A stretch of 64,000 nt of DNA from an uncultured Gemmatimonadales bacterium (GTDB lineage: Bacteria > Gemmatimonadota > Gemmatimonadetes > Longimicrobiales > Gaopeijiaceae), in the NCBI GenBank assembly GCA_963809895.1, contig CAWELD010000003.1, positions 1,024,001-1,088,000 of the forward strand. The letters run 5' to 3'. A program made the position numbers and the translations under genes. The notes under the pieces are model-generated. The model saw nothing but the letters and a program-made list of their open reading frames with translations, searched no databases and had not been told where the DNA came from. Below are positions 22,866 to 46,101 of the stretch, piece by piece. Positions within the stretch are counted from its first letter, which is position 1, and each line of letters starts with the position of its first letter.

Positions 22866-24163
22866 GAGGCCGCCGCTCCGGCGCGGGCGGGTTGCTCGAG
22901 GGCGGCCATGCGCCGCCGCAGCGTGAGGATCGCCGGGCCCACGCCCTCGTCGCCGGCCACCAGCGCCGTGGGCACCCCACCCCGCTCCAGCGCCTGGCGC
23001 TCGGCCTCGCGCTGGGCGAGCCAGATGCGGAGCGCCGCCTGATCGGCGCGGTCCTCGCCCACTGGAAGCACGTCGGAGGTGTCGATCACCAGGGCCACGG
23101 TGGTGTGCCCCGCGCGGCGGAAGCGGAGCAGCTCGGGCACGAAGGTCTCGGAGCGGAGGGTGGTGACCCCCACGATGAGCGCGTCGGCGGGCACCATGGC
23201 GCGGCCGCGCCAGATGCGGCGCCGGGTGCGGTCCTCGGCGGCCTGTCCCACGGCCAGGAGCTGGTCCAGGAGCATCCAGCGCGCCCGACGGCCCCCACGC
23301 GGCGGGAGCCAGGCCGCGGTGCGGCCCCGGGCCAGGAGGCCCACCCGGTCCTGGGCCCTCAGGTGCACCGACGCCACCGCCCACGCCGACCTGGCGCTCC
23401 GGGCCAGCGCCTCGGTGCTCCGCTCCTCCTCGCGCAGCGCCGCGTCCAGGACCAGCACCACCGTGCCGGTGCGCTCCGGGTGGTTCACCCGCACCCAGGG
23501 CTCGCCCAGTCGGGCCGAGGTGGCCCAGGACAGGTCCCGCAGGCGGTCCCCCGGCTGATAGGGGCGCAGCTCGGCCAGGTCGGTGCCGTGGCCCCGAAGC
23601 CGCGACACGTGCAGGCCCGCGATGGCCCGGGGCTCGGCGGGCTTGAGGAGCCGGCTGACGCGCAGCGCCGCCGGCAGCACCCTGAGCCCCGGCACCCGAC
23701 CCAGCTTGTGCTCGGTCATGACCAGGCTCCCGGGTCGCCGCGCCCGCACCCACAACGACCCCAGGTCGTGCACGCCCCAGGAGCGGGCCTCCAGGCTGAA
23801 CGGGAGCGTCACCGGGCCCTCGCCCAGCGGGAGCGCCCACCCCGTCACCGGCGCCGGATCCACGGCCGTGATGCCCCGGCCCCCGGCCAGGAGCACGTCG
23901 ACCTCGGCCTCACCGTCCCAGTCGACCGCGACCTCGCCCTCCACCCGGTCACCCTCCACGGCCACCTCGCCGTGCACCCGCACCGCACCCTGCACCTCCA
24001 CGGCGTCGGTCGAGGCCAGTCCCAGCGCCGCCAGGGCGATGAAGGGCGCGCCCAGCGCCGCCAGCACCGGCTCGCCGGTGGCCACGGCAGCCACCAGCGC
24101 CGCGAAGCCGGCCACCAGGTACGCCGGCAGCCGGGGGTCGGGACGACGACGTCCCCGGCTCAC
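22862..24163 (-). CDS. DUF58 family protein
   Basis: GTDLAELRPYQPGDRLRDLSWATSAR, DRVGL; follows MoxR. Confidence 0.88.
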   Translation of the reverse strand: MSRGRRRPDPRLPAYLVAGFAALVAAVATGEPVLAALGAPFIALAALGLASTDAVEVQGAVRVHGEVAVEGDRVEGEVAVDWDGEAEVDVLLAGGRGITAVDPAPVTGWALPLGEGPVTLPFSLEARSWGVHDLGSLWVRARRPGSLVMTEHKLGRVPGLRVLPAALRVSRLLKPAEPRAIAGLHVSRLRGHGTDLAELRPYQPGDRLRDLSWATSARLGEPWVRVNHPERTGTVVLVLDAALREEERSTEALARSARSAWAVASVHLRAQDRVGLLARGRTAAWLPPRGGRRARWMLLDQLLAVGQAAEDRTRRRIWRGRAMVPADALIVGVTTLRSETFVPELLRFRRAGHTTVALVIDTSDVLPVGEDRADQAALRIWLAQREAERQALERGGVPTALVAGDEGVGPAILTLRRRMAALEQPARAGAAAS

Positions 24164-25185
24164 GTGCCCTGGGGCACCGGGACGCGGTCCACCGCCCGTC
24201 GCACCACGTCCTCGGGGTTGGCGCGCCGCGCCCAGGCGTCGTCGCTCAGCACCACGCGATGGGCCAGCGCCGGCACCGCCATCCCCCGGATGTCGTCGGG
24301 CCCCACGTACTCGCGGCCGGCCAGCAGCGCGGCGGCGCGCGCCAGCTTCACCAGCGCCAGCGTGCCCCGGGGGCTCGAGCCCACCGCGAGCTGCCGCTTC
24401 GGCTGCGCGTCGCCCGCACCAGCGCCACGCAGTATGCCATGAGGCGCCGGTCCACGTGGATGTGCTCCAGCGAGCGCTGGACCGCCGCGAAGGTGGCGGC
24501 GTCGCAGGTCTGGCGGATGGCCACCTCGTCGGTGCGGCGCTCCACCCGGTTCTCCAGCATGGCGATCTCGTCGTCCTCGGCCGGATAGCCCATGATCGTG
24601 CGGATCAGGAAGCGGTCGAGCTGGGCCTCCGGGCAGCGGATACGTGCCCTCCGACTCGATGGGATTCTGGGTGGCGATGACCAGGAACGGCCGCGGCAGC
24701 GGGTGGGTGGTGCCGTCGGCGGTGACCTGGCGCTCCTGCATGGCCTCCAACAGCGCGGCCTGGGTCTTGGCCGGCGCACGGTTCACCTCGTCGGCCAGGA
24801 GCAGGTTCGTGAAGACCGGCCCCGGCCGGAACTCGGGCCGGTGGGTGGCCAGGTCCAGCACCAGCGAGCCCGTGATGTCCGCCGGCAGCACGTCGGGCGT
24901 GAACTGAACCCGCGAGAACTCGAGTCCCGCCGCCGCGGCGATGGAGCGCGCCGTGAGCGTCTTGGCCACGCCGGGCACGTCGTCCAGGAGGATGTGTCCG
25001 TCGGCGAACAGCCCCGCCAGGATCAGGCGGATGACGTCGCGCTTGCCCACGACGGCGCGGCACACCTCGTCCAGGATGCCCTCGACGACGGCGGCGGCCT
25101 CCTCGAAGGGGAGCGCCCCGGGATCGTGGGCGGTCGTAGGTGTCGAGCCGCTCCCTGGCGGCGGCGGTGTGGAGGATGCGGTCAT
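24160..25185 (-). CDS. MoxR-family AAA ATPase with two compensating frameshifts (~24630 and ~24400)
   Basis: DVPGVAKT, DEVNRA, ATQNP, GTYPLP in one frame; EAQLDRF in another; GSSPR back in the first. Confidence 0.88.
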   Translation of the reverse strand: MTASSTPPPPGSGSTPTTAHDPGALPFEEAAAVVEGILDEVCRAVVGKRDVIRLILAGLFADGHILLDDVPGVAKTLTARSIAAAAGLEFSRVQFTPDVLPADITGSLVLDLATHRPEFRPGPVFTNLLLADEVNRAPAKTQAALLEAMQERQVTADGTTHPLPRPFLVIATQNPIESEGTYPLPGGPARPLPDPHDHGLSGRGRRDRHAGEPGGAPHRRGGHPPDLRRRHLRGGPALAGAHPRGPAPHGILRGAGAGDAQPKRQLAVGSSPRGTLALVKLARAAALLAGREYVGPDDIRGMAVPALAHRVVLSDDAWARRANPEDVVRRAVDRVPVPQGT

Positions 25186-25751
25186 GATCGCGTGTGGGTT
25201 GGGGGAGTGAGGCCTTCCAGCTCGTCCAGGACCCGGTGCACCGTCTCGGCCACCTGGCGCTCGTCGGTGCCCACGGTCTGGAACCACCAGGGCTGCTTGA
25301 GGGGCTCGCTGGCCAGGACGGCCCACGACAGCGGGGACAGGCGGGCCCGTGCCGCTCGCACGGCCCCCGCGTCGGCCGGATCCACCTCCAGCGCCGAGGC
25401 GATGAGCGGCTTCAGGCGCCTGAGGATCTCCGGGGGCATGGCCGGCGCGCCGTCCAGCGGCTGGCGGCGACCCCCGATGCGGGCACGGATGGCCTCGATT
25501 TCGGGGGATTCCTCGTCGGCTTCCTGCCACGCCGTACCCCCTCCGAACGGGGACATCCACTTGAAGGGGGACATCCACTCGGCGGGAGTCACGTTGCGGG
25601 CCAGCGCGTAGAGGGCTGCCGCCGCGCCCACGCTGAGCGCCACGACCTGGAGGGCGTTCCAGGCATGCTGCGGCCAGATCACGGCGACCAGGCCGCCGAT
25701 CAGGAGGGCGGCGGCGCCCACGTTGGCGGGTCGGAGCATGCGTCCGCTCAC
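25182..25751 (-). CDS. Hypothetical membrane protein of the MoxR cluster
   Basis: Two N-terminal TM helices; coupled to neighbours by 4-nt overlaps. Confidence 0.65.
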   Translation of the reverse strand: MSGRMLRPANVGAAALLIGGLVAVIWPQHAWNALQVVALSVGAAAALYALARNVTPAEWMSPFKWMSPFGGGTAWQEADEESPEIEAIRARIGGRRQPLDGAPAMPPEILRRLKPLIASALEVDPADAGAVRAARARLSPLSWAVLASEPLKQPWWFQTVGTDERQVAETVHRVLDELEGLTPPTHTRS

Positions 25752-29655: not shown

Positions 29656-29709
29656 GAAAACGCCACGAGCCCGGCAAGGTCTCTCGACCTCACCGGGCTC
29701 GTCGTTTTC
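29656..29709. terminator. Bidirectional terminator-like hairpin beside the att repeat
   Basis: GAAAACG..ACGAGCCCGG / CCGGGCTCGT.CGTTTTC inverted repeat. Confidence 0.65.
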
Positions 29710-29756
29710 CAGAGCGGGCGACCGGGCTCGAACCGGCGACCCTCAGCTTGGGAAGC
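29708..29756. repeat. att site (duplicated 3' part of tRNA-Gly)
   Basis: 49-bp exact match to 46024-46072. Confidence 0.95.
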
Positions 29757-29848: not shown

Positions 29849-29879
29849 CGTGGGCACTGATTCTGTCACTGCGGCCCAC
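29849..29879 (+). repeat. Putative integrase arm-type binding site
   Basis: CGTGGGCACTGATTCTGTCACTGCGGCCCAC, 29/31 identical to 45933-45963. Confidence 0.75.
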
Positions 29880-30255: not shown

Positions 30256-31080
30256 CTAGGAAGGAAACAAGTGCGGCGTGCCATCGGGCACCTCACCTCG
30301 AATGCGCTTCTCCTGCACGAAACTAAGGCCCTCGGACCTTGTCAGTGTTGCTACGTCGATGGGGCCGCCACAGCCCCGCATTACCACCGAGAGCCGCTGT
30401 GCCGCAATCGTCGTACGGATAAAGAACAGGGCCAGATCCACGCAATCCTCCAAGGGGAGTGCCTGGACGGGCACTTTCATCTGAATAGCGGCGGCCTTGG
30501 CCTGGAAGGCGTCGATGTTCTCCTCGGCTATACCCGACTCCCTCATGAGCTCTACCACGCGATGGTCGTACCCGCGCACGAGCCGGTCGACATACTCACG
30601 CTGCCCTCCCCAGGTGAGTCCGAACTGGTTCGCATCATGCCTTGCGATGGGGTTTGCGGAATGGGGCAGGTTCAATTCGTATACCTCGCCGTACGCCTTC
30701 TTGTCGTCGTACCCAGCGATAATCATGGTCATCGGCTGGCCCACGTACTGCTGGTTTCCCAGCTGCTCGTTCCACCGCTCAACAAAGAAGTGCCCGATTC
30801 GCTCCGAGTATGCCTTGATGGACAAACGCTCGTCGGGTAGATGGGACTGCAGTTCCGGCAGATAGCTATGCGCGGTGCGAAGTCCGATCGCGGCCTGGCC
30901 CCACGTGACGATGCCCACATGCTGGTGGGGCTCGACGCCGAGGCCGAAGAGCTTCACCGCATTGTCGTAGCTGATGTACAGCGGGTGTCCCAGAATCGGC
31001 GAATCGGTTTGCAGGGTGACGCGCGATTCGGCCGCGAGCACGATTCCGCTCGGGGACTTGATGGCGATGCCAAGACTCAA
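30256..31080 (-). CDS. Proteasome-beta-like Ntn-hydrolase family protein
   Basis: TTG start with GGAG RBS; (M)SLGIAIK..GIVLAAESR..VKLF, IIAGYD, GGPIDVATLT. Confidence 0.7.
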   Translation of the reverse strand: MSLGIAIKSPSGIVLAAESRVTLQTDSPILGHPLYISYDNAVKLFGLGVEPHQHVGIVTWGQAAIGLRTAHSYLPELQSHLPDERLSIKAYSERIGHFFVERWNEQLGNQQYVGQPMTMIIAGYDDKKAYGEVYELNLPHSANPIARHDANQFGLTWGGQREYVDRLVRGYDHRVVELMRESGIAEENIDAFQAKAAAIQMKVPVQALPLEDCVDLALFFIRTTIAAQRLSVVMRGCGGPIDVATLTRSEGLSFVQEKRIRGEVPDGTPHLFPS

Positions 31081-31091
31081 TGTCGCCTGCT

Positions 31092-31156
31092 CCGGACCTT
31101 GCCTGGGGGAGCTGGATTCGGCAACAGGATTACGCCGATCGCACCTCGACCGCAAG
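31092..31156 (-). repeat. Conserved 5' leader, copy B
   Basis: Similar to 29001-29065; lies just upstream of the Ntn gene start. Confidence 0.75.
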
Positions 31157-31267
31157 GACACGCGCTCCTTACACGGGACGCGCGCCCCCATACTTGACAA
31201 AGTACCCGCATCAGGTTATTGATGTGATGAGGGCCCCCCCAGACCCCTCCCACTGGGTGGTCATGTC

Positions 31268-32323
31268 ATGGTGTCTCACCTCGTCTTCGGGGCTCTTCTT
31301 ACCGTCGCCCAGCAGCCGGTTCAGGTTGCACCCGCCACCGATTGTCCGGACCCAGGTTGCGGGTATTCGCTCGCCACAGAAGTGGAGCTCGAGCCTACGG
31401 GGCGGTCTATCAGCATCGGTCGCACTAATGATTCGGGAAGGACGTTCGCGGTAATCGGGAGCGCTGTCGACCAAGTCCTCGTGTTCACCCCGGACGGCAC
31501 TCGGACGAGTTCGGTCGCCTACCCTCCGGTGGGCTCGTACGTCAACATCTACTCGCTCGTCCCAGCCGCGGACTCGATGATCGCCTTTGACCGGGCTGGG
31601 CCGAGTCTCTCCGTGATTGATCGGAACCTCCGTGTTGCTCGCACGGAGCGATTCCCGATGCCGGTCTTTGACGCTGTGCGTCTTGGAGACGACGCCTTCC
31701 TCGTGAACGCTGAGATGAACACGCCGGAGCGGGTCGGGCTTCCCCTTCACGTCGTCCGGAATGGAGAGATCGTGCGCTCGTTTGGTTCTGCGCATGGGGT
31801 GTACCGACCTGACTTCTCGTATCTCACGCGGCGCGAAGTGGCCCTCGCATCCTCGGGCGAACTCTGGGCAGCCAGGAAGAGCGAGTATCGCCTTGAGTCA
31901 TGGGGGAACTCGGATGAGGCGCCCGACAAGGTGCTCGCGGTTGACCTCCCGGGCTTCGAGCCCTGGAGCAGCGGCCCCCGGAGCCCTAGCGATGGAAATG
32001 GGCCTCGCGGACTCCTAGAAGACCTATCCATCGATGAGCAGGGCTACCTGCGCGTAATCGTCACCGTTAGAGATGTCGATTGGCGTGATGCCGCATCGCT
32101 CCGCGGCGAGGGAGCCTCTAGCGCCTATCTCCCGACTGACCTGTCCGGCTACTTCGATTCGTACGTGGACATCATCGATCCCGTTAGAGGCGTCCTTGTG
32201 GCCCGGCTCTGGTCTGATGCGTACCTCACCACCTTCCTCGACCCGGAACATGCGATTGCCAACGTCGGACCGAGGGAGTCCCCGCGAACATCCATCGTCA
32301 GGATTCAAGTCAAGCGACCGTGA
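31268..32323 (+). CDS. Secreted beta-propeller protein
   Basis: N-terminal CxxxxC, VLVFTPDG, LHVVRNGEIVRSFG, YVDIIDPVRGVLVA blade-like motifs. Confidence 0.7.
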   Translation: MVSHLVFGALLTVAQQPVQVAPATDCPDPGCGYSLATEVELEPTGRSISIGRTNDSGRTFAVIGSAVDQVLVFTPDGTRTSSVAYPPVGSYVNIYSLVPAADSMIAFDRAGPSLSVIDRNLRVARTERFPMPVFDAVRLGDDAFLVNAEMNTPERVGLPLHVVRNGEIVRSFGSAHGVYRPDFSYLTRREVALASSGELWAARKSEYRLESWGNSDEAPDKVLAVDLPGFEPWSSGPRSPSDGNGPRGLLEDLSIDEQGYLRVIVTVRDVDWRDAASLRGEGASSAYLPTDLSGYFDSYVDIIDPVRGVLVARLWSDAYLTTFLDPEHAIANVGPRESPRTSIVRIQVKRP

Positions 32324-32401
32324 ACTGTATCTTCCTTGGGGGAGGGGGTTCCGAACCAAATCGTTGCTTGCATCGTTCACGTATACACGTAGGAGTCTGA
32401 T

Positions 32402-32908
32402 ATGAGGAAGTTGTTTGGAGTTTCGGCCCTCTGCCTCGGCATCTTCATCGTGGCAGCCGGTTTTACGTTCCATGCTTCGCCCGCGCATGTCGCGACCGCG
32501 GCAGAAGCAGAAGCGCTGTTGAGCGCCCCCATGAACTTCCGGGAGGCCCGCGTCGGTTGCGTAGCCTGCGATATCTGCGGGGATGATGGGCATCTGACAA
32601 TCTCCAACCCAGAGGCCCTGAGAAGCGGACTCGTCCACAACTGCTACGACCAATACAACAACTGTGATTTCTGGCACCCCGCGGACTGCACGGTTCAGGA
32701 GGACGTGCAGGAGGTCGACCTGGCCGCGCTGTGGCCAACGCTCACCGACGGGACCACCGATGAGATTCGAGGGATTCTTCAGAGGATGCCTGAACGCGTA
32801 TACCTCAACGTGGACCGGAGTTCACTTCAGGTACTCGGATGCAGCGGCGCCGTCATTGCGAACCTACCGCTTGCACCCGAGAGCGTCGCGGCGTTAGCTC
32901 AAGACTAG
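32402..32908 (+). CDS. Secreted Cys/His-rich small protein (168 aa)
   Basis: AGGAG RBS; signal peptide; CxxCxxC..H..HNC..C..H..C core; C-terminal LQVLGC.G.VIANLPL. Confidence 0.8.
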   Translation: MRKLFGVSALCLGIFIVAAGFTFHASPAHVATAAEAEALLSAPMNFREARVGCVACDICGDDGHLTISNPEALRSGLVHNCYDQYNNCDFWHPADCTVQEDVQEVDLAALWPTLTDGTTDEIRGILQRMPERVYLNVDRSSLQVLGCSGAVIANLPLAPESVAALAQD

Positions 32909-32945
32909 CCGGCGGTTTGGTTGCCCCTCCCCCAAGATTCTATCG

Positions 32946-34154
32946 ATGCCCACCGAGAGCTACGTCGACTTCCCCCGATCACTCAACGTGTCACGAGCGG
33001 CATCGGTTGCGGCCCTGCTTTTGCTCCTTGCGGCGTGCGGGACGGACGGCACGGTGCCGAGGATGCCCGAGTCGATGGATACGCTCCACCTCTCCAGCGA
33101 GGTCGTCATCGGACGTGAGCCAGAACAGGCCTTTGGCCACATCACCGCTATTGGCACCGCATCAGATGGGACTGCTCTGGTAGCGGACTCCTATTCTGGA
33201 CAGCTACGTGTCTTCAGCCCGGAAGGAGAAGAGCTCGCCCGCTTCGGCAGAACTGGTCAGGGCCCTGGCGAATTTGGCCTGGTCACTGCGATTTCTTCGG
33301 TGGGCGACACGCTGTGGGCGATAAGGGATGTCTCAAACGCCCGGGTCACGATTGCTTCCATGGGAGGAGAGTTTGTGACCTCTTGGTCAGCAGCCGGCGT
33401 AGAATTCTCAGGTACCAAGGGCTTGGTCACTACACCCAGCGGCAACCTGGTCCTCACCTCCTTCGAGTCAGGAGCTATTGTTGCGGAGACAAGGTCTCCT
33501 TCGGGTGCGGAAGTTGGCAAGCCCGTACGATTCCCTATGACTCACTTCGATGCCTGTCCCAAGCAACTCATCGCCGGCCCAGGTACACCGGTCATTCCCC
33601 TCTCGTCGTCTCTCCAGTGGTCCATCGCCCCTCAGGGCGGGATCTATTTCAGCTGTGGAGACGAATTTGAGGTCAGCATTGAGACATCAGCCGGGACGGA
33701 CAAGACTATCAGGAGCGTGACGCCCCCAGTGAGCGTCTCAGCTGGTGAGCGGGACTTCTACCGTGATTGGATCAATAACCGGATGCATGTCCGTAACCCT
33801 CGATGGCGATGGGACGGAAGCAACATCCCAAGCACCAAGCCACCCATCCTTGGCCTCTACGCGACCGATCGAGCTGGTTTGTGGATCGCCCTGCCGAGGC
33901 CTGGGGCTCCGGAGCCCAAACCCCCACGAGCTTCGGAGGTGGATCCCGATCCATTTTGGTTCTCTCCGAAGAGCTTCGAAGTCATCGGGCTTGATGGTCA
34001 CCCGCTCGCAATCGTTGAAGGGGATAGACACATCCAGTTGACCGTCGACCCATCTCCATGGATTGGTGGACTCTGGGCTGTGTCGACGGATCCCATTGGG
34101 ACGCCTCTTCTCGTCCACTATCGGCTTGATCAACCACTCCGGTCACTGCGATGA
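32946..34154 (+). CDS. 6-bladed beta-propeller lipoprotein
   Basis: LAAC lipobox; LRVFSPEG..FGRTGQGPGEF; FEVIGLDGHPL. Confidence 0.8.
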   Translation: MPTESYVDFPRSLNVSRAASVAALLLLLAACGTDGTVPRMPESMDTLHLSSEVVIGREPEQAFGHITAIGTASDGTALVADSYSGQLRVFSPEGEELARFGRTGQGPGEFGLVTAISSVGDTLWAIRDVSNARVTIASMGGEFVTSWSAAGVEFSGTKGLVTTPSGNLVLTSFESGAIVAETRSPSGAEVGKPVRFPMTHFDACPKQLIAGPGTPVIPLSSSLQWSIAPQGGIYFSCGDEFEVSIETSAGTDKTIRSVTPPVSVSAGERDFYRDWINNRMHVRNPRWRWDGSNIPSTKPPILGLYATDRAGLWIALPRPGAPEPKPPRASEVDPDPFWFSPKSFEVIGLDGHPLAIVEGDRHIQLTVDPSPWIGGLWAVSTDPIGTPLLVHYRLDQPLRSLR

Positions 34155-34666: not shown

Positions 34667-36002
34667 GGGCCGGACCAGACTGGCAGATAGGTAACACTTC
34701 AGACCGACCACATGGGTAACGGCCACAGGATACTAGCGTCGCCTCCTCGTTTGTGCACCGATGCGGCGGAGACGGCCGTGCTGCTCGTCGAGAATGGCCA
34801 CGAGGCAGGGGCCGAGGTAGATATTCCAGTCTCCGCAGTCCTGGAAGTCGAGGCCCAGCGTTTCGCCGCGTAGGGTCTCGCTCACAAAGTACTCTTGGCC
34901 CCGCCATCGCATCTGCCCGTGTCGCGTGACCCGGCGGGTTTCAAATCGATCCGGATAGGAAAGCGCTTCCGGCTGTTTGGGCATCGCTGTGTTCGACGGC
35001 GTGTAAAGGCTGGCCGGTGTCTTCAGGTCGAGCGCTTCGTGCGGCCGTTCCTCATTGTAGATTCGTCGGAAGCGGTTGAACGCTCTTTGCTGGAGTTCCC
35101 GTGTCCGAGCGGGCGGCCGGGTCGCCTCAGCCTTCAGCGTCCGATGCATGCGCTCATGGGCGCCGTTGTCTTCCGGATGCCGGGGTCGGGTCCGCTCGAG
35201 CCGGATGCCCAATCGGATCCACCACACCGCGAGTTGAGACAGGCCCGCGATGGCCTGGGTGCTGAAAGGGACGCCGTTGTCCGTCCGGATGACCTCGGGA
35301 AGCCCGAAGGCACGGAAGACGCGCTCGAACCCGGCCCGAGTGCCGGCGGTCGCGGTGCTCGGCAATCCACGGCAGTCGAGCAGGAATCGACTGTGCGCAT
35401 CAACGATGGTGAGCGGGTAGCACAGACGACCGCTGCCCAATCGGAACTCACCCTTGAAGTCCGCCGTCCAGACACGGTTGGGAGCATCGGCCTCCGTCCG
35501 GGCCGGACGCCACACGCTGGGCTTCATCGTACGTCGCCTGCGCGGTTTCGTGAGGCCTTCCCGCTTGAGGATCGAGCCAATGGTGCTGCAGGCCGGCCAA
35601 CGTGCTCGAGGGCGCGCCTGCTCCAGCCATGCCTTCAGCTTTCGAGGCCCCCAGGTCGGATGCTCCTTCCGAAGCGCGACGATTTCATCAACTGTCGCCT
35701 GCGGCGTCGCTTCCCGCTGTCGGTGGGGAGCTCGCGAGCGATCCGCGAGGCCCGCCAACCCTTCCCGCCGGTACCGGTCAAGCCATTTGTACCCGACGCG
35801 TCGACTGACGCCGTACCGGGCACAGACCTCCGTCATCGAATCCCAACCCTCCAGAGCCTCCAACACGAACCGGATCCGTTCGTCCATCGGACAGGTCTCA
35901 CTCCACGGCATCGAGCACCTCGTGGCTGTAGGTGCTCTAGGTTGCGTTGAGTGTTACCTATGTGCTCGGATTATTCTGTTACCCCTGTGCCCGGTCCGTA
36001 CC
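34667..36002 (-). mobile_element. IS481-family insertion sequence
   Basis: Transposase plus imperfect inverted ends with repeated GGTAACA motifs; GCC at both junctions; exact ends uncertain. Confidence 0.85.
34733..35911 (-). CDS. IS481-family DDE transposase
   Basis: MPWSET.PMDER, WTADFKG, IRTDNGVPF, NGAHERMHRTLK, YNEERPHEAL. Confidence 0.95.
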   Translation of the reverse strand: MPWSETCPMDERIRFVLEALEGWDSMTEVCARYGVSRRVGYKWLDRYRREGLAGLADRSRAPHRQREATPQATVDEIVALRKEHPTWGPRKLKAWLEQARPRARWPACSTIGSILKREGLTKPRRRRTMKPSVWRPARTEADAPNRVWTADFKGEFRLGSGRLCYPLTIVDAHSRFLLDCRGLPSTATAGTRAGFERVFRAFGLPEVIRTDNGVPFSTQAIAGLSQLAVWWIRLGIRLERTRPRHPEDNGAHERMHRTLKAEATRPPARTRELQQRAFNRFRRIYNEERPHEALDLKTPASLYTPSNTAMPKQPEALSYPDRFETRRVTRHGQMRWRGQEYFVSETLRGETLGLDFQDCGDWNIYLGPCLVAILDEQHGRLRRIGAQTRRRR

Positions 36003-36385: not shown

Positions 36386-37775
36386 TCACCATCCGTAAGG
36401 GTTCTTCGGTTTGAAGCCGAGTCTGACCCGCTCGTAGTCGGACAGGGCCCCCACGATCTCGAGGGTGACGTGGCTACCGCTCAATTCGCCGTGGTCGAGG
36501 AGAGCCTGGGCCACCGCCATTACGGCGCTCCATTCCCTGCGCAGCCACGACCGCGCCACGCGGATCGCGCCGCCTACGTCGCCGGCGCGGCCCTGCAGCG
36601 CCTGGATGCGGCGGATCGCCGCCACGGTTGAAGGCGGAGTCGAGGAGCTGGAACCCCGCCTCCAGCTCGGCCGCGATCCCCGCCGCGCATACTGTGGCGC
36701 ATGCGTCCGCCGAGGTGTCCTCTGGAGGGAGTCCCCCATGGACGCGGCCACCGTTGATGAGCAGGCGCCCGCCGTCAACGCGCCAGCGAATCTCGGCGCC
36801 GGAGAGCGTCTGGTGCAGCCGGAGCATCGCAACAGCGTGGCCTGCCTCGTGGTAGGCGACCATTCGCGCGCGCTGCCATGTCGAAGCATCGGCCAGGCGC
36901 CACGCGAGGGCCCACGGCACGCCCGCCGGCTCCTGCTCCACGACGGCGGCGATCCTCGAGGGCGCCGCGGCGGCCCGACCTGCGGGCCGAGAGCCACCGC
37001 CCTGGAGCTCCTGGAGGACGTCATCGAGGGTGGCGATGCGGTCCGCGAGCCCACGCTGGACCGCCCGGGCCGCGTCGTACGTGCGCCCACCGCCGAACTG
37101 CTGGCGAACCGTCGAGATGGACACGCCACGACCCTTGGCCACTGCCTTCTCGAACGCCCGGCCGTAGGCCTGTACGATGCTCAGGGTGTGGGCCTGGGCC
37201 TCGTCGCTCATGGGCTCGTACGGGTTGCCTTCGGCCTTCTGGTCCGGGTATCGGACGATGGTCGGCGCGATGCCGCGGCCGCCGAGGTTCTTCGACCAGT
37301 CGAAGTGCACCGTGTAGACGCCGATCGAGCCGACTTCGCCGGAGGGCGTGACCACGAGCTCCGACGCGGCGGAGGCAATCCAGTAGGCCGCGGAGGCCAT
37401 GAGGCTGTCCGCGGTGGCTACCACGCGCTTCTTCTTCGCGGCCTCGGCCACCAGAGAGGCGGCCTCCGTGACCCCGTAGACGCCGCCGCCAGGGGAATCG
37501 ACGATGAGCAGGATGCTCTCGACCGAGGGCGCGACCATCGCTGAGCGCACGGAGGCCATGAAGCTGTCGAGGCCGGTGCCGCCGAAGAAGCGGGTCATCA
37601 TCGATTCGCGGCGATCGATCAGGCCGAACAGCGGGATCACGGCTACATCACCGGCCGCGGAGATCCTCTGTCGCTGGCGGGCGGCGCGGATCGCGTGGCC
37701 CAGGCGGTCGGTGGCGAGCGCGGCGGGCTGACCCTCAAGACAGGCGAGCGCGGCGCGGAGCGAGACGTCTTCCAC
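36386..37775 (-). CDS. S49 (phage prohead/SppA-like) serine protease fused to an M41-like HEAGH metallopeptidase; frameshift near 36615
   Basis: DSPGG, ASAAYWIAS, GSIGV, GLADRIAT, then in frame AYHEAGHAV..AAGIAAE; tail W.AV.AVAQALL..GELSG in a shifted frame. Confidence 0.8.
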
Positions 37776-37777
37776 GG

Positions 37778-38476
37778 TCAGCCGCCGGTCGGGCCGTCTA
37801 GGGGCCACTTCCGCGTCTCGTCTTTGTCGTCCGAGACGGACGGCGCGACCGGCTTCGTTCCGGCCGGGATCTCGGGGTCGGCGATTGGCGGGATCGAGCC
37901 CTTGATCGCCGCCAGGCGAGCGTCGAGGTCCTTCCCGGGCTCCAGCTTCACGCGCTCGAGCTCCCGATAGGCGGCGCCGATCGCCTCGAGACGGGCGAGG
38001 ATGGAGGACCTGTTCGACACGGACCGCGCGGGCCGACCGGTGAGCCAATGCTTCGGCGCCACCTCGACCGACATGGGCTGGATCCGGCGAGTCTGCTCGT
38101 GGAGGTCCTGGAGCTCGTGCTGCAGGCGACGGATCGCGTCATCGGCCGTGCCCTTGAGTTCCTTCTCGAGCCTCGCGATACGGTGCTCGATGGAGACGCT
38201 GACGTTCCACGTCGCGCGCTCCGCGGCGGCGAGCTCATCGAGGGCGGCGCGGTGGATGCGGCCCGTCTCGGCGGCCTTCTCGCGGGCGGTGGCCTCCCGC
38301 TCTCGGAGCTTGGGAAGCTCGGCGTCTCGCTCTTTGCGCAAGGCCTCGATCTGCCTGACGAGCTGGACGCGGCGCTCCAGGCGCTGGGCCCGGGCCTGGG
38401 CCATCGCCTCCTTGTACATCGGGGTCTCGCGGAGGAAGGCCGCGACGGCGTCGGGGTGGAGTTCCGGATCCGGCAT
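37778..38476 (-). CDS. Coiled-coil hypothetical protein (232 aa)
   Basis: E/R/L/A-rich heptad pattern; GAGGG RBS. Confidence 0.7.
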   Translation of the reverse strand: MPDPELHPDAVAAFLRETPMYKEAMAQARAQRLERRVQLVRQIEALRKERDAELPKLREREATAREKAAETGRIHRAALDELAAAERATWNVSVSIEHRIARLEKELKGTADDAIRRLQHELQDLHEQTRRIQPMSVEVAPKHWLTGRPARSVSNRSSILARLEAIGAAYRELERVKLEPGKDLDARLAAIKGSIPPIADPEIPAGTKPVAPSVSDDKDETRKWPLDGPTGG

Positions 38477-38569: not shown

Positions 38570-38872
38570 TCATCGGCGTTGCCAGGCCGCTTTCCGGGCG
38601 CGGCGGAGTGCGCGGTCCAGCGTCTCTCCGTTGAGGCCAAGCCGCAGAGCCGCGGACTCCCGGATCCGCTCCGCGGTGCCTCCCTCGGTGGCCTCCAGCG
38701 CCTCGACGGCACATGCGAAGGCGAGCAGCTCGAAGAAGCCCCGCACCGCCGGTACGTGGTGCCAGCACTCCACGGGGATCCCGAGGCGACCGCAGGCGTC
38801 CACGAGCGCTACGAGGTGCTCGGGATGTAGCGCGGCCTCGATGGCCTCTCGGTCGCCAGGGTCTCGGGGCAC
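38570..38872 (-). CDS. Small protein with C-terminal HTH-like motif
   Basis: ESAALRLGLNGETLDRALRR. Confidence 0.5.
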   Translation of the reverse strand: MPRDPGDREAIEAALHPEHLVALVDACGRLGIPVECWHHVPAVRGFFELLAFACAVEALEATEGGTAERIRESAALRLGLNGETLDRALRRARKAAWQRR

Positions 38873-38882
38873 GGGAAAGCGT

Positions 38883-39338
38883 CTACCGCTCGCCCAGGGC
38901 GCGGAGCTCGGCGCGGGCGGCTTCCACGACATCGCGGATCAACTCCCGGGCCCGCGACTGCGGGATGTCCAGCTCCTCGGCCACGGACGGGGCCAGCCGG
39001 CGCGGCGCATCCTTGAGGACCTGGTTCACGCGCTCCAGCGGCTCGCGGACGAGTCGCTCCATGTCGTCGAGGGCGACGAGTTGGCCCTGCTCGCGGGCCA
39101 CCTCGAGCTCACGTTTCGCGGCCCTGGCTTCGACCTCACGAACTCGAGCCCGCTGGAGGGCCGACGTGTCGTTGCCGTGCTCCAATAGGAAGCGGAGGAG
39201 CGGCTGGACCCGGTACGTCGGGCTGCGATCGTCGGTGCGAGCCTCCTGGAGGCCCTGCGACTCCCAGTTGCGCAGCGTCCGCTCGGTCATGTCGAGCGCA
39301 ATTGCCACTTCGGCACGGGTGATGGTCAGTGCGGCCAT
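38883..39338 (-). CDS. Nu1-like terminase small subunit
   Basis: N-terminal wHTH (TRAEVA..MTERTLRNWESQG), coiled coil RAR..EARAAKREL..EQGQLV, then LKDAPRRLAP. Confidence 0.72.
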   Translation of the reverse strand: MAALTITRAEVAIALDMTERTLRNWESQGLQEARTDDRSPTYRVQPLLRFLLEHGNDTSALQRARVREVEARAAKRELEVAREQGQLVALDDMERLVREPLERVNQVLKDAPRRLAPSVAEELDIPQSRARELIRDVVEAARAELRALGER

Positions 39339-39387
39339 CTGGCCCTCACGGAAGAAAGGAAGGAGGTATTTTCGTGCTCTCTTTGGC

Positions 39388-39439
39388 GCGAAAAGTCGCT
39401 CGCGCGGCACCCATCCAACTCAGGTCGGGGGACGGACCC
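39388..39439 (-). other. Putative lambda-like cos site (cosQ/cosN-like)
   Basis: GGGTCC..20 nt..GGGTGCCGCGCGAGCGACTTTTCGC upstream of the TerS-like gene. Confidence 0.5.
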
Positions 39440-39492: not shown

Positions 39493-39855
39493 TCACTTGA
39501 GCTCTCTCCGCCAGGAGCCCAGGTCCACCTCACCGCGTCGGCGGCGCGTGGTGACGGGCTTCACCTCGCCTGCCTCGGAGCGCTGGAAGGCCCGGATGGC
39601 GGCGCGCGGGATCTTCCACTCCCTGCCCTGCTGTCGGTAGGCGCCCGGGAGCAGGTCGCGGCGGCAGTAGTCCCTCACCGTCGAGGGTGAACGCCCGAGG
39701 ACGTCGCCCGCCTCTTCGACGGTCAGGTCGGCCAGCGAGTCGCCCGTGGGGGTCGGTGTGCTGTCGGGGAGGCGCTCGAGGATGACCCGAGCCGGGACGG
39801 AGGCCTCCACCTCGGCCAGCTGCTCGAGCCAACGTCGGAAGTCGGAGTAGGTCAT
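39493..39855 (-). CDS. Excisionase-like HTH protein
   Basis: LTVEEAGDVLGRSPSTVRDYC..LPGAY..GREWKIP. Confidence 0.8.
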   Translation of the reverse strand: MTYSDFRRWLEQLAEVEASVPARVILERLPDSTPTPTGDSLADLTVEEAGDVLGRSPSTVRDYCRRDLLPGAYRQQGREWKIPRAAIRAFQRSEAGEVKPVTTRRRRGEVDLGSWRRELK

Positions 39856-39870
39856 GGCCACCTCCGCCCA

Positions 39871-40040
39871 CCGTGCCCAAGCCCGGCACGTCGGATGGAG
39901 CGTCGAGTGGACCTCGGGAGTGTGCCCAATGCCCCACCCCCCTTCAGGGGGTGTGTTGGGGCACGGTGGGCACACCCCCTCTCCCGGTGTGCCCTGGGCA
40001 CGGTTTGGGCACGGTTGGGCACGGTCCTCATCGGGCACCT
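39871..40040. repeat. Iteron cluster, putative replication origin
   Basis: Several TGGGCACGGT/GGGCAC direct copies and GTGCCC inverted copies around a CACCCCC-cttca-GGGGGTG palindrome, at the 3' end of the helicase gene. Confidence 0.7.
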
Positions 40041-41350
40041 CCGGCGAGGCTGATCCGAGAGGCCTGCCCTCGCTTCTCGGGGGTCTGGATGACCACCTCT
40101 CCCCGACTGTGCAGGAGCTCGAGGGCGGCCACGATGTCGGGGTTGTGACCCTTGATTCCGTCCCGGAGCGATCGCTTCGACGAGCCCGGATGCAGGGCCA
40201 AGTACTCCAGGACGGCGGGCGCCATCTTCTCGGCGCCGGCCATGCGTTCCACGAGCTCGGGCCGGTGGTCGCTCACCCGCAACCTGAGCCACCCACCAGA
40301 GCGGAAGCTGTTGTGCGGTCCGGCTGGATCCTCGTCCTCGACTGTGAAGGCGAACGGATCCGGGGATACCTCGTCCCGGAGTTCCACCCTCACCGTGACG
40401 GGGGACGTCTCGTCCTTCCGACCGAGCACCGCCCCCATGTCATACCAGGCGCCGAACGCGGAGGAGTTGCGGATCAGGTCGGTGAGCCGCTGGCCTCCTC
40501 CTTGGCCCGGGTCCTTCCGGGCGTGGTGCGTGAGCTGGAGCGCGATGCCCTTCGCCTTGGCGCGGATCCCCGAGAACGCGTTGAGCTGGGGGGTCACCAC
40601 GTCGGAGTCGTCGCTGTCGCCGGTGGCCACGTACGACCAGTTGTCGACCGCCAGGAAGTCGAGCTCCAACTCGGCAGCGTAGTCTCCGAGCTCGTCCACC
40701 GTGCGGTCGCTGAAGCGGAGCGGGGGCCGGAACCAGAGGTGAAGCCATCCGTCGAGCTCCTGGGGGTCTATCCCCCTGCCCCGGCAGATGCGCTCGTAAC
40801 GGCGGCGGACCCGGTGGTCCCGATCCTCCATCAGGACCGCCCCGACGCGGCGGCGCTCGGGCACCTCGAACCGGCCCAGGAAGCGGGTGCCCGACGCGAG
40901 TGCCACCAGCTTCTCCAGGAGAAGGAGGGTCTTGTACGTCTTCGGGTAGCCTGCCTGCAGGATGTTGGCGTCCACGGGGTCCGGGCTCTCGATCAGGAAG
41001 GCCTCTTCGGGCTCCTCCACCGCCAGGAGCTCGGCCACGCCGATGGGGGGCGGGAGCGTTCGTGGTTCGGGCTCCTCACTCAGGCCCTCGAGCGCCCAGG
41101 ACACCGCGGACGACGCCGCACCGTCCGAGAGCCGCTGCAGCAGGAGCTCCTCCGCCGCCGCGCGAAGTGACATCCATCCGCGTGGCGAGGCCGGCCGGAA
41201 CCGCTCGGCGATCTGCCGGACGGCCTGGTAGGCGGAGATCTGACTGTCGACCCCGGGCAGGAACTCCTCGAGGGCAGCCCGGGCCTCTTCGGGCGTCGTG
41301 AGGGTGCCATTGCGCTCGAACTCTCGAGCCGACGCCGACGTCATGCCCAC
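40028..41350 (-). CDS. RepA/AAA_25-type replication helicase
   Basis: Walker A variant AGYPKTYKT, MED, LAVDN, LTHHARK, RNSSAF; C-terminal wHTH-like region. Confidence 0.8.
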   Translation of the reverse strand: MGMTSASAREFERNGTLTTPEEARAALEEFLPGVDSQISAYQAVRQIAERFRPASPRGWMSLRAAAEELLLQRLSDGAASSAVSWALEGLSEEPEPRTLPPPIGVAELLAVEEPEEAFLIESPDPVDANILQAGYPKTYKTLLLLEKLVALASGTRFLGRFEVPERRRVGAVLMEDRDHRVRRRYERICRGRGIDPQELDGWLHLWFRPPLRFSDRTVDELGDYAAELELDFLAVDNWSYVATGDSDDSDVVTPQLNAFSGIRAKAKGIALQLTHHARKDPGQGGGQRLTDLIRNSSAFGAWYDMGAVLGRKDETSPVTVRVELRDEVSPDPFAFTVEDEDPAGPHNSFRSGGWLRLRVSDHRPELVERMAGAEKMAPAVLEYLALHPGSSKRSLRDGIKGHNPDIVAALELLHSRGEVVIQTPEKRGQASRISLAGGAR

Positions 41351-41494: not shown

Positions 41495-41728
41495 TTATCC
41501 GGCGCGATCATCCGGGCCTTTCCCCATCGCGCCGAGGACCTTGGCCAGGTTGGACACGCGGCGGCGGACCACGCGCGCCTCGGCGGCTGCGAAGCGCCCA
41601 GCCTCGACGGCATAAGGCTCAAGGCCAGCGGTCACGGCCGCGTCCAACTGGTCGACGAGCGCGTCTGCCAGCTTCACGGCCTGGCGAAGATGATCCCGGG
41701 CGGCGGCCGTCATCTCATCCCTGGCCAT
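41495..41728 (-). CDS. Small hypothetical protein
   Basis: Overlaps the end of the AlpA gene in the operon. Confidence 0.5.
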   Translation of the reverse strand: MARDEMTAAARDHLRQAVKLADALVDQLDAAVTAGLEPYAVEAGRFAAAEARVVRRRVSNLAKVLGAMGKGPDDRAG

Positions 41729-41921
41729 CGGTCTCACCCGCGACAGGCCTGGAGGTGATCCAATCCTGGATCTCGCTGGAGAGCCAACCCACGACCCCAC
41801 CGCCGAGGTCGCGGCGCCTGGGAAAGCGCCCTTCCCGCTCGCGGCCGTAGATGGTGTTTCTGCCGAGGCCGGTGACCTCGGAGACTTCGTTGATCCGGAG
41901 GATTCGGTCCTGGTCCGCCAT
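41715..41921 (-). CDS. AlpA-family phage regulator
   Basis: ILRINEVSEVTGLGRNTIY..GRFP..LG..VGWLSSEIQDWI; AGGAGG RBS. Confidence 0.92.
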   Translation of the reverse strand: MADQDRILRINEVSEVTGLGRNTIYGREREGRFPRRRDLGGGVVGWLSSEIQDWITSRPVAGETDGQG

Positions 41922-44630: not shown

Positions 44631-45908
44631 ATGCCCAAGCGCACCACCACGCGCCTCTACACGCGCCAGCAGGGCGGCGAGAATCGCTTCTACGGCGATT
44701 TCCGGGCCTACGCCGACGTAGGGGGCGGCCGGGAGGCTCTGATCCCGGAGGGGCAGCGCCAGGCGACCACGGATCCGGATATCGCGGCCAAGCTCTACGC
44801 CGATCGGCTGAAGGAGCTGGACGCCAAGCGCCGGAACCGTCACCTCCACGGGGTCCTGAAGGAGACCGACCTCGGACCCTACGCCGAGTATCACCTGCAG
44901 CAGAAGGCCCGGGACCGGGACGCCACGGAGCGGTGGCTCAAGATGGAGGAGCGCCACCTGCGGGACGCCGTCGCCTTCTTCGGGACCAGCACCGGACTCG
45001 CAGCGATCAGCCCGGAGGAGTGCACCCGGTGGGTCGAGGAGCTCCGCCACCAGGACAACGGCCGCGGGGGGACCCTGTCGGAGACGAGCATCCGGAAGCG
45101 GCTCAACACCCTCTCGAACCTCTTCCGCCGCGCGGTGAGCGAAGGGTACGTCCACCGGAACCCCGTGGCGGACATGTACTCGAAGCCCACGGAGGAGCGC
45201 CGGGAGGCGGACTACCTCGAGCCGGAGGAGGCCGCGCTGCTCCTCGAGTCGGCGCGGACGTACCGGGCGCCCGTGGACGATGGCGCGTTCCCGTACATGT
45301 ATCCGCTGCTGGCCACCTTCCTCCTCACCGGCGGCCGGAAGTCGGAGGTCCTGGGCCTCGAGGTGGACGACGTGAGCCTCCGCCTGGGCAAGGTCTACAT
45401 CCGGCCGAACGACTGGCGCCGGCTCAAGACGCGGGGCAGCAAGCGGACCGTCCCACTCTGGCCGCAGCTCGAGGAGATCCTCCGGGCCTACCTGGTGGAG
45501 CGGGAACGCTCGGGCGGGCTCGGCCGGCTCCTCTTCCCTTCGGCCCGGGGTGAGGGCGAGAGCCTCATCCGGGACGTGCGGAAGGCCCTGGACCACATTG
45601 CGGTCCGCGCGGGCTTCCAGAAGGGCGCCGTCCGCCTCCACCAGCTCCGGCACACGTACACGGCGGCCCGGCTCCAGACGTGCGACCGGGGTCGGCCCGT
45701 GGCCCTTTACACGGTCGCCCGCGAGCTCGGGCACTCCGGCACCGCCATGATCGAGGACCGCTACGGCCACCTCCACGACCGCGTGGAAGCCGGCGGCACG
45801 GAGGTAGTGGAGTTCCGGGTGGAGGCCTGGAGGGAGCGTCTCGGCGAGCGACTCACCGCCCTCGAGCAGCGAGCCAACGCCGGCGACGTCACCGACGCGG
45901 AGGGCTGA
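44631..45908 (+). CDS. Tyrosine recombinase (integrase)
   Basis: TGGRKSE, LKT, HQLRHT, LGH..MIEDRYGH catalytic residues; adjacent to the att/tRNA. Confidence 0.95.
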   Translation: MPKRTTTRLYTRQQGGENRFYGDFRAYADVGGGREALIPEGQRQATTDPDIAAKLYADRLKELDAKRRNRHLHGVLKETDLGPYAEYHLQQKARDRDATERWLKMEERHLRDAVAFFGTSTGLAAISPEECTRWVEELRHQDNGRGGTLSETSIRKRLNTLSNLFRRAVSEGYVHRNPVADMYSKPTEERREADYLEPEEAALLLESARTYRAPVDDGAFPYMYPLLATFLLTGGRKSEVLGLEVDDVSLRLGKVYIRPNDWRRLKTRGSKRTVPLWPQLEEILRAYLVERERSGGLGRLLFPSARGEGESLIRDVRKALDHIAVRAGFQKGAVRLHQLRHTYTAARLQTCDRGRPVALYTVARELGHSGTAMIEDRYGHLHDRVEAGGTEVVEFRVEAWRERLGERLTALEQRANAGDVTDAEG

Positions 45909-45932: not shown

Positions 45933-45963
45933 CGTGGGCACTGATTCTGACACTGCCGCCCAC
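45933..45963 (+). repeat. Putative integrase arm-type binding site
   Basis: 29/31 identical to 29849-29879. Confidence 0.75.
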
Positions 45964-46028
45964 CGTACCCTCGAACTGAACGAGCCCGGCAAGGCCGCAA
46001 AGCCTTACCGGGTCTCGTTTTACTCCAG

Positions 46029-46101
46029 AGCGGGCGACCGGGCTCGAACCGGCGACCCTCAGCTTGGGAAGCTGATGCTCTACCAACTGAGCTACGCCCG
46101 C
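46029..46101 (-). tRNA. tRNA-Gly (CCC)
   Basis: GCGGGCGTAGCTCAGTTGGTAGAGCATCAGCTTCCCAAGCTGAGGGTCGCCGGTTCGAGCCCGGTCGCCCGCT cloverleaf. Confidence 0.97.

Follow-up and report, generated by a model that had tools for sequence, protein, structure and literature searches.

The 64,000-nucleotide stretch analysed here (hereafter the window), taken from the genome of an uncultured Gemmatimonadales bacterium (G000; GenBank assembly GCA_963809895.1, contig CAWELD010000003.1, positions 1,024,001 to 1,088,000), carries on its minus strand a gene in which an S49 prohead-type serine protease runs in frame into a zinc peptidase resembling the protease domain of FtsH (family M41). The fusion is real and no assembly artefact, and it lies in an island whose gene content points to a capsid-less satellite of the phage-inducible chromosomal island (PICI) type. 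Our sequence comparisons show that the M41-like domain is the constant part of a wider family in which the front module is exchanged, and we regard the island as a phage satellite variant with a candidate enzymatic factor aimed at phage heads. The gene is laid out as follows.

36386..37775, minus strand: gene fusing an S49 prohead protease to an M41-like zinc peptidase; the in-frame form would have 466 aa, but the window's copy is interrupted.
36975..37688, minus strand: S49 prohead-type serine protease domain, residues 30-267 (Pfam, PHROG, homolog model).
36615..36914, minus strand: first part of the M41-like domain, with H309, E310, H313 and D387, the last aligning with the Asp of FtsH.
36386..36625, minus strand: out-of-frame tail corresponding to the C-terminal helices of the M41-like domain (homolog C-termini match).
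36616..36626: frameshift site, an 11-mer present in a single copy in the window and in two copies (one mismatch) in the contig of a relative.

The open reading frame (ORF) at 37775-36474 (minus strand) encodes 433 aa and starts 2 nt past the stop of a coiled-coil gene. Pfam PF01343 (S49) covers residues 112-258 (E 6e-28; 98.1 bits, the cut-off being 24.9), and PHROG_53, the head maturation protease family, covers residues 30-267 (E 1e-67), both of which we take to denote phage head maturation proteases of the lambda gpC type. Two residues, S128 (37394-37392) and K180 (37238-37236), are invariant in the homolog alignment and presumably form the S49 catalytic pair, and the S49 part of the homolog P0004, as modelled, matches SppA/ClpP (SppA 4kwb, E 5e-13). 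From the S49 domain the frame continues into HEAGH (H309, E310, H313; 36851-36837) and then, just ahead of a break, into D387 (36617-36615), in agreement with the first-pass annotation, which from the letters of the window had proposed a two-protease fusion with an M41-like second half. Read in another frame (36625-36386), the sequence behind the break resembles the C-terminal ends of three intact homologs, P0008, P0006 and P0004 (E 6e-10 to 1e-3).

The M41-like nature of this second half is supported by the predicted fold of its P0004 counterpart. The P0004 domain model, built from a 6-row alignment (pLDDT 91.9), has its best Foldseek matches in the FtsH family (3kds, TM 0.64, E 1e-4), and VIA structure comparison gave Z 14.5 to 8xks_B and Z 11.8 to 2di4_B (root-mean-square deviation 2.9, 124 aligned), with a further resemblance to the Vibrio protein 5iqj, of unassigned function (Z 10.8); when the PDB was searched by sequence, FtsH was again the best match of the zinc domain (E 6e-5). 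Among 47 aligned domains, 41 labelled head-fused and 6 belonging to FtsH, 46 retain HExxH and 45 the Asp, in whose column 2 have Glu, and the conserved Asp aligns with that of the six FtsH rows. Predicted fold and residue conservation thus rule out HEAGH as a chance motif. A Pfam scan for AAA families found none in the window protein, P0004, P0005, P0006 or P0008, and PF01434 (M41) scores 15.8 bits on the window protein against a cut-off of 29.9, the intact homologs likewise remaining below it. As modelled, the domain therefore resembles the protease domain of FtsH but is no FtsH: it has the fold and the HExxH plus Asp in common with FtsH/M41 (PDB 3kds, 2di4, 2ce7), and differs in being about 160 aa long, ATPase-less, below the Pfam M41 cut-off and fused to virion-assembly modules. 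A word-based search with the P0004 domain returned only itself, and the zinc-domain profile found mostly FtsH in 401 order-level genomes; locus searches gave chiefly FtsH genes and distant standalone peptidases with P0126 and nothing with P0138. A match of the zinc domain to P1 Hdf (E 0.057) was set aside as helical chance.

A homolog search with the fusion gave 482 relatives, and 4 of the 119 non-self relatives among the best 120 have an intact C-terminal zinc domain (P0004, P0005, P0006, P0008); a later profile search added P0123, P0124 and P0267, so that seven S49 fusions, intact or 5'-partial, are known elsewhere. These independent fused homologs, together with a relative's contig that continues from the S49 end across the tail, rule out an assembly chimera, and they answer the worry, raised with the original proposal, that the homologs might always be separate genes. 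The relative's short-read contig (run X1, one of three runs compared with the region; record 2, 992 nt, 38 letters different, about 95% identical) is longer by 11 bases behind 36615. These form a second 11-mer copy and bring the tail into frame, for 466 aa; the frameshift near 36615 already suspected in the first pass is accounted for by the repeat unit missing at 36616-36626. Because the tail differences in this contig fit the tail frame, the fusion is not an artefact of assembly: of the 15 listed, third codon positions account for 10, and 9 leave the protein read in the tail frame unaltered; in the read-through frame of the window 0 of 6 are silent. These counts rest on 40 listed of 111 differences. 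No phage-encoded fusion was found either: the best 80 viral-contig S49 loci match no further than query residue 288. An M41-like hidden Markov model (HMM) found no match in these 80 loci, and among 50,697 records of cultured phages none of the 902 matching P0004 and none of the 402 matching P0133 reaches 80% fusion coverage.

The window's own copy, minus one 11-nt repeat unit, could equally reflect an assembly error or real slippage. The G000 assembly does carry residual indels, because 1 of 27 testable host loci is split across frames and the host MoxR AAA+ gene (window 24160-25578) is broken near 24690 by a single-base frameshift that probably arose in assembly. Were the 11-nt loss real, an Arg-rich tail would take the place of the final 79 or so residues and the zinc domain would probably be dead, and the S49 part may still work.

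At E <=0.001 the zinc-domain profile matched 3,598 sequences, FtsH fragments included, among the 1.84 billion representatives of a library clustered at 50% identity, and the best 150 were listed; 147 of them were scanned with Pfam, the other three (P0003, P0006, P0008) being S49 fusions already known, the window's own among them. A head-assembly module is fused in 38 of these 150 relatives. Six are S49 fusions (the three known and three from the scan), 17 bear the HK97-type prohead protease S78, which is unrelated to S49, and 14 a helix pair resembling the delta domain of capsid proteins; P0190 shows a fourth architecture in reversed order, two tandem M41-like domains standing N-terminal to the head protease PHROG_4523. 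The Ser column of S78 holds S in 16 of the 17 and a gap in the remaining one. Genomes G052 and G798 encode S78 fusions, and in G390, a genome of the same genus, S49, S78 and the M41-like domain are joined in a single 680-aa gene.

The delta-like set was defined by an HMM from 12 N-terminal extensions picked by eye as resembling capsid N-termini. This HMM matched 47 of 16,858 ORFs from the collected loci, all of them in phage loci, and the 22 matches tested for family all proved to be PF05065 major capsids; it also matches two more members of the zinc-domain family (which makes the 14) and the C-terminal tails of four phage-type S49 proteases, P0057, P0095, P0103 and P0112. In lambda, gpC is an S49 protease whose C-terminus is the Nu3 scaffold, and the first-pass idea that a second peptidase occupies the scaffold position fits with the scaffold-like helix pair found there in these four proteins. 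A quick tree of 158 rows, from which the window's broken domain, 4 motif-less rows and short rows were left out, gathers 16 of 18 S78-, 11 of 14 delta- and 7 of 8 S49-labelled domains in a single group (SH-aLRT 92); the partners are intermixed within it, and one clade with a support of 98 holds both delta and S78 forms. Taken together, these comparisons show a generality beyond the initial proposal, namely that the zinc domain, rather than S49, is the constant part and that its front module has been swapped among three unrelated head modules.

The question arises as to what these front modules have in common. HK97-type proheads assemble in E. coli from few genes, and prohead proteases are enclosed within the procapsid. 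The delta domain of HK97 is described, in the available part of one account, as an internal scaffold that is later removed by the phage protease (PMC5052747), so that, by analogy, each module would bring its passenger to the procapsid interior. It is this predicted destination, the inside of the assembling head, shared by three unrelated modules, that leads us to favor, with slightly better than even confidence, the reading in which the front module is an address that puts the zinc peptidase into the helper procapsid in order to cut a head-assembly protein. The front module (S49, S78, both, or delta-like) would be recruited to the helper procapsid during assembly, and the zinc peptidase, now inside, would do the cutting, an address plus a second blade. 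As a guess, the substrate may be the helper scaffold or delta domain, the helper protease, the portal, or else the coiled-coil protein that the island itself encodes; the result may be small heads that favor satellite packaging, or dead helper heads.

The address logic would apply equally if the zinc peptidase were loaded into particles as an effector, ejected into the next cell, and there cleaved some protein of the host, for example a repressor or defence factor, or freed packaged proteins. Prohead proteases and delta domains are, however, normally degraded and out of the head before DNA packaging. The removal of the delta domain from the head by the protease (PMC5052747, as far as available) likewise speaks against a packaged effector, as does PADLOC, which gave no match for the 11 proteins tested. 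On the other hand, the available text on polyvalent proteins (PMC5512222), in which FtsH/M41 goes unmentioned, proposes such a mode of action for the HEXXH metallopeptidase domains of phage and plasmid proteins that are packaged or transferred, and the PDB and fold matches of the zinc domain offer no substrate hint. All in all, we consider an ejected effector improbable.

The address reading also draws on the surroundings of the gene. The fusion lies in an island of about 16.3 kb, bracketed at tRNA-Gly(CCC) by 49-nt exact direct repeats 16,316 nt apart, whose other features are these.

29708..29756: attachment-site core, left, 49 nt, repeating the 3' part of tRNA-Gly.
34733..35911, minus strand: IS481-type transposase, inside the island and downstream of the fusion (Pfam).
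37778..38476, minus strand: 232-aa coiled-coil protein outside known families, ending 2 nt ahead of the fusion gene.
38570..38932, minus strand: small protein with no assigned function; same position in the related locus L121 (46% over 54 aa, E 8e-10).
38883..39410, minus strand: small terminase subunit (terS), PHROG_57 (E 1e-12).
39493..40038, minus strand: HTH_17 excisionase-like protein (Pfam, PHROG).
40028..41350, minus strand: AAA_25 replication ATPase, primase/helicase-like (Pfam, PHROG).
41715..41921, minus strand: small excisionase/regulator (PHROG_2790 match), presumably AlpA-like.
44631..45908, plus strand: tyrosine integrase (Pfam, PHROG).
46024..46072: attachment-site core, right, overlapping tRNA-Gly(CCC) at 46028-46101.

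The genes thus run from terS through the small gene and the coiled-coil gene to the fusion; a RadC gene also lies within the island and cargo genes lie past IS481. With its attachment site and direct repeats, an integrase at one end, a xis/AlpA-type regulator, a replication ATPase and terS within about 16 kb, and no capsid, portal or tail genes among the ORFs scanned (some small ones were left aside), the island would be, on its gene content, a PICI-like and capsid-less satellite, which upholds the satellite setting assumed from the start. Family searches for HK97 capsid, lambda capsid and portal found none in G000, which is 95% complete; the place of a phage-type S49 protease between portal and capsid accordingly has no counterpart here, as neither gene is found in the island or the genome. 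The sole strong match to terL, the large terminase subunit, lies in a separate island about 1.16 Mb away, and the window's island is thus no capsid-forming PICI (cf-PICI) with its own capsid, portal and terL.

Some further features of the island and the genome deserve mention. A 31-nt repeat, 94% identical, lies just inside the attachment sites (window 29849-29879 and 45933-45963) and may represent integrase arm-binding sites. In the cargo block (window 31268-34154) two larger proteins, one of them with a weak 6-bladed propeller match, flank a 168-aa protein that contains Cys and has a hydrophobic stretch at its N-terminus; a 23-nt inverted repeat (32335-32357 / 32914-32936) brackets this smaller protein. 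A 314-aa cargo protein (window 30256-31200) matches only PHROG_5990, which has no assigned function; by motif it seems to resemble the proteasome/Ntn-hydrolase type, in which case it would be the island's third peptidase. A second small island in the same genome (G000:C3:2222190-2233805) has integrase-like and xis-like genes, a lone terL and no capsid.

Six fusion loci come with flanking DNA (the window, L121, L229, L125, L265 and L126), genes in the related loci being called with a simple hexamer model. A coiled-coil gene lies upstream of the fusion in all six, with one small ORF between them in L121; an integrase is present in five, next to a tRNA in four of them, and a PHROG terS in four, and none of the scanned genes is a capsid, portal or terL. 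L265 lies near a contig end and is remnant-like. A PHROG_57 terS pairs with S49 in the window, as it does in phage L123, and a PHROG_83 terS with S78 or delta in L125, L229 and L126; the terS family would thus fit the type of address, as an adaptation to the type of helper might, in what are only four scored cases. Right after the fusion stands a small protein in L229 (7514-7909), L125 (12493-12861) and L126 (8702-9178), one of which matches PHROG_5707 (no assigned function); by eye, and with no family support, these look like the gene past the capsid in phage L123 and are possibly head decoration proteins.

In L128, L230 and L231, which carry unfused M41-like genes, just as in the six fusion loci, a coiled-coil gene lies either next door or at a distance of one gene. 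This constancy would suit a maturase, the neighbour being a size switch of the Sid/CpmB kind that the zinc peptidase removes once small heads have formed, with the helper proteins uncut; in the part of PMC12409344 available, known size switchers do hold a fixed place in the interference operon of the Staphylococcus aureus pathogenicity islands (SaPIs). However, the coiled-coil proteins fall into at least two groups whose mutual similarity is undetectable (hhalign probability 0.5%), and neither group has a meaningful sequence match in the PDB to Sid, Psu, CpmB or TcaP, so that a maturase of this kind seems to us quite improbable, marginally more so than the ejected effector. Profile searches with the coiled-coil proteins returned their own inputs only, and Atlas gave no usable match. 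Complex prediction for the L121 coiled coil with the P0005 zinc domain scored 0.00, which has no bearing either way.

Unfused M41-like copies are found in similar islands (L231, L128 and L266); the island L231 (G666:C34) is inserted at tRNA-Gly(CCC) like that of the window, and its host flanks and integrase are similar. In two capsid-encoding elements, L230 and L214, the unfused gene adjoins the capsid gene, a neighbourhood that also speaks for the address reading; the order in L214 is delta-like ORF, M41-like gene, capsid. L230 (8664-13053), an island at tRNA-Leu, has a coiled coil, a divergent capsid (PHROG_10, E 3e-6), the M41-like gene and two terS, with no portal or terL, and we read it as a Ccm-like capsid mimic adjoining a peptidase. 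Such adjacency is what a deletion requires, and it is conceivable that the fusions are a by-product of gene order, a capsid having been deleted from a protease-capsid-M41 block of satellites so that the protease or delta domain was joined to the next gene, the two domains remaining independent, the zinc peptidase being general cargo and its target unrelated to heads. It also speaks for this explanation that unfused M41-like genes are far commoner and occur outside satellites. Yet 38 of the 150 top matches, in a library reduced to clusters of 50% identity, have kept the fusion in frame, and the two active sites are conserved, one predicted destination is common to three unrelated front modules, and the S49-S78-M41 triple fusion is hard to derive from a single deletion; a mere by-product is in our opinion unlikely. 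An origin by deletion and a later selection of the fusions are mutually compatible.

It is useful to set the fusion against known systems. Phage S49 proteases share with the fusion the domain and its conserved Ser and Lys, and the best 80 from viral contigs, many of which precede a capsid gene, are 42-50% identical to it, but where they continue into a C-terminal scaffold helix or a capsid the fusion has a zinc peptidase, and portal and capsid are not nearby. The known redirectors of helper heads listed in the available text of PMC12409344 are Sid (P4), TcaP (of PLE), CpmAB, Ccm and Rcm, and the SaPI factors Ccm and CpmB hijack heads by scaffold or delta mimicry (PMC5052747 and PMC12409344, each as far as available). 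These PICI, P4 and PLE redirectors are scaffold or capsid mimics with no protease described among them, whereas the mimic in our fusion bears a catalytic domain; the word protease is absent from what is available of PMC12409344, which states that the mechanism of redirection is unknown for several PICIs. Satellites of the cf-PICI type also encode a head maturation protease, together with capsid, portal, connectors and large terminase, of which the window's island has none, and the accessible part of their account contains no metallopeptidase fusion and 0 occurrences of peptidase (10.1101/2022.09.08.507074). Marine virion-encapsidated integrative mobile elements include serine proteases loosely tied to procapsid maturation in the text available (PMC9618062).

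A tape measure gene stands soon after or near the peptidase gene in three capsid-less islands, L121 (6965-8848), L125 (13443-15698) and L266 (5606-8757), which in this respect resemble EPIPs (PMC12822802) and PLE11 (PMC12987554), satellites with their own tape measure according to the available parts of these sources; the accessible EPIP text mentions neither protease nor peptidase. The window's island is unlike them in having no tape measure gene, and IS481 occupies the place where one might have stood. Our literature search found no description of a prohead protease-M41 fusion, in keeping with the first-pass remark that no satellite of this kind was known, in a body of text that mostly did not extend to subscription papers, and supplementary annotation tables could list such genes.

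Several points weigh against the address reading. The fusion is known from sequence, predicted fold and context; most of the fused proteins stand on short contigs without visible context, and four family searches of G000 (95% complete) found no helper head genes. Of the 150 nearest relatives, 112 have no recognised head module, many being short or cut by a contig end and two being FtsH, and settings other than satellites likewise contain unfused relatives (L127, L187, L228, L232). The delta set was chosen by eye, and the ORFs it was run against are enriched in capsids, many of them near-copies; the delta fusion of G069 (L126/P0157) has Glu in place of the first His. The main group of the tree was not starred and is moderately supported, 28 of its 62 rows are unlabelled, and the domain of the triple fusion and P0267 fall outside it. 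Lastly, the copy in the window is frameshifted, with IS481 beside the gene, and may be broken.

It is tempting to hypothesize that these genes belong to a widespread and undescribed class of satellite weapons, in which a mini-FtsH zinc protease is smuggled into the procapsid behind an interchangeable address matched to the head type of the helper, a generalization that we hold plausible if somewhat short of even. If true, this would be the first enzymatic, rather than structural, means by which satellites remodel or sabotage the heads of their helpers, and a protease riding a swappable address into the procapsid would amount to a new mode of phage piracy. It would also offer a first functional approach to the ATPase-less FtsH-like peptidases that mobile elements carry by the thousand.
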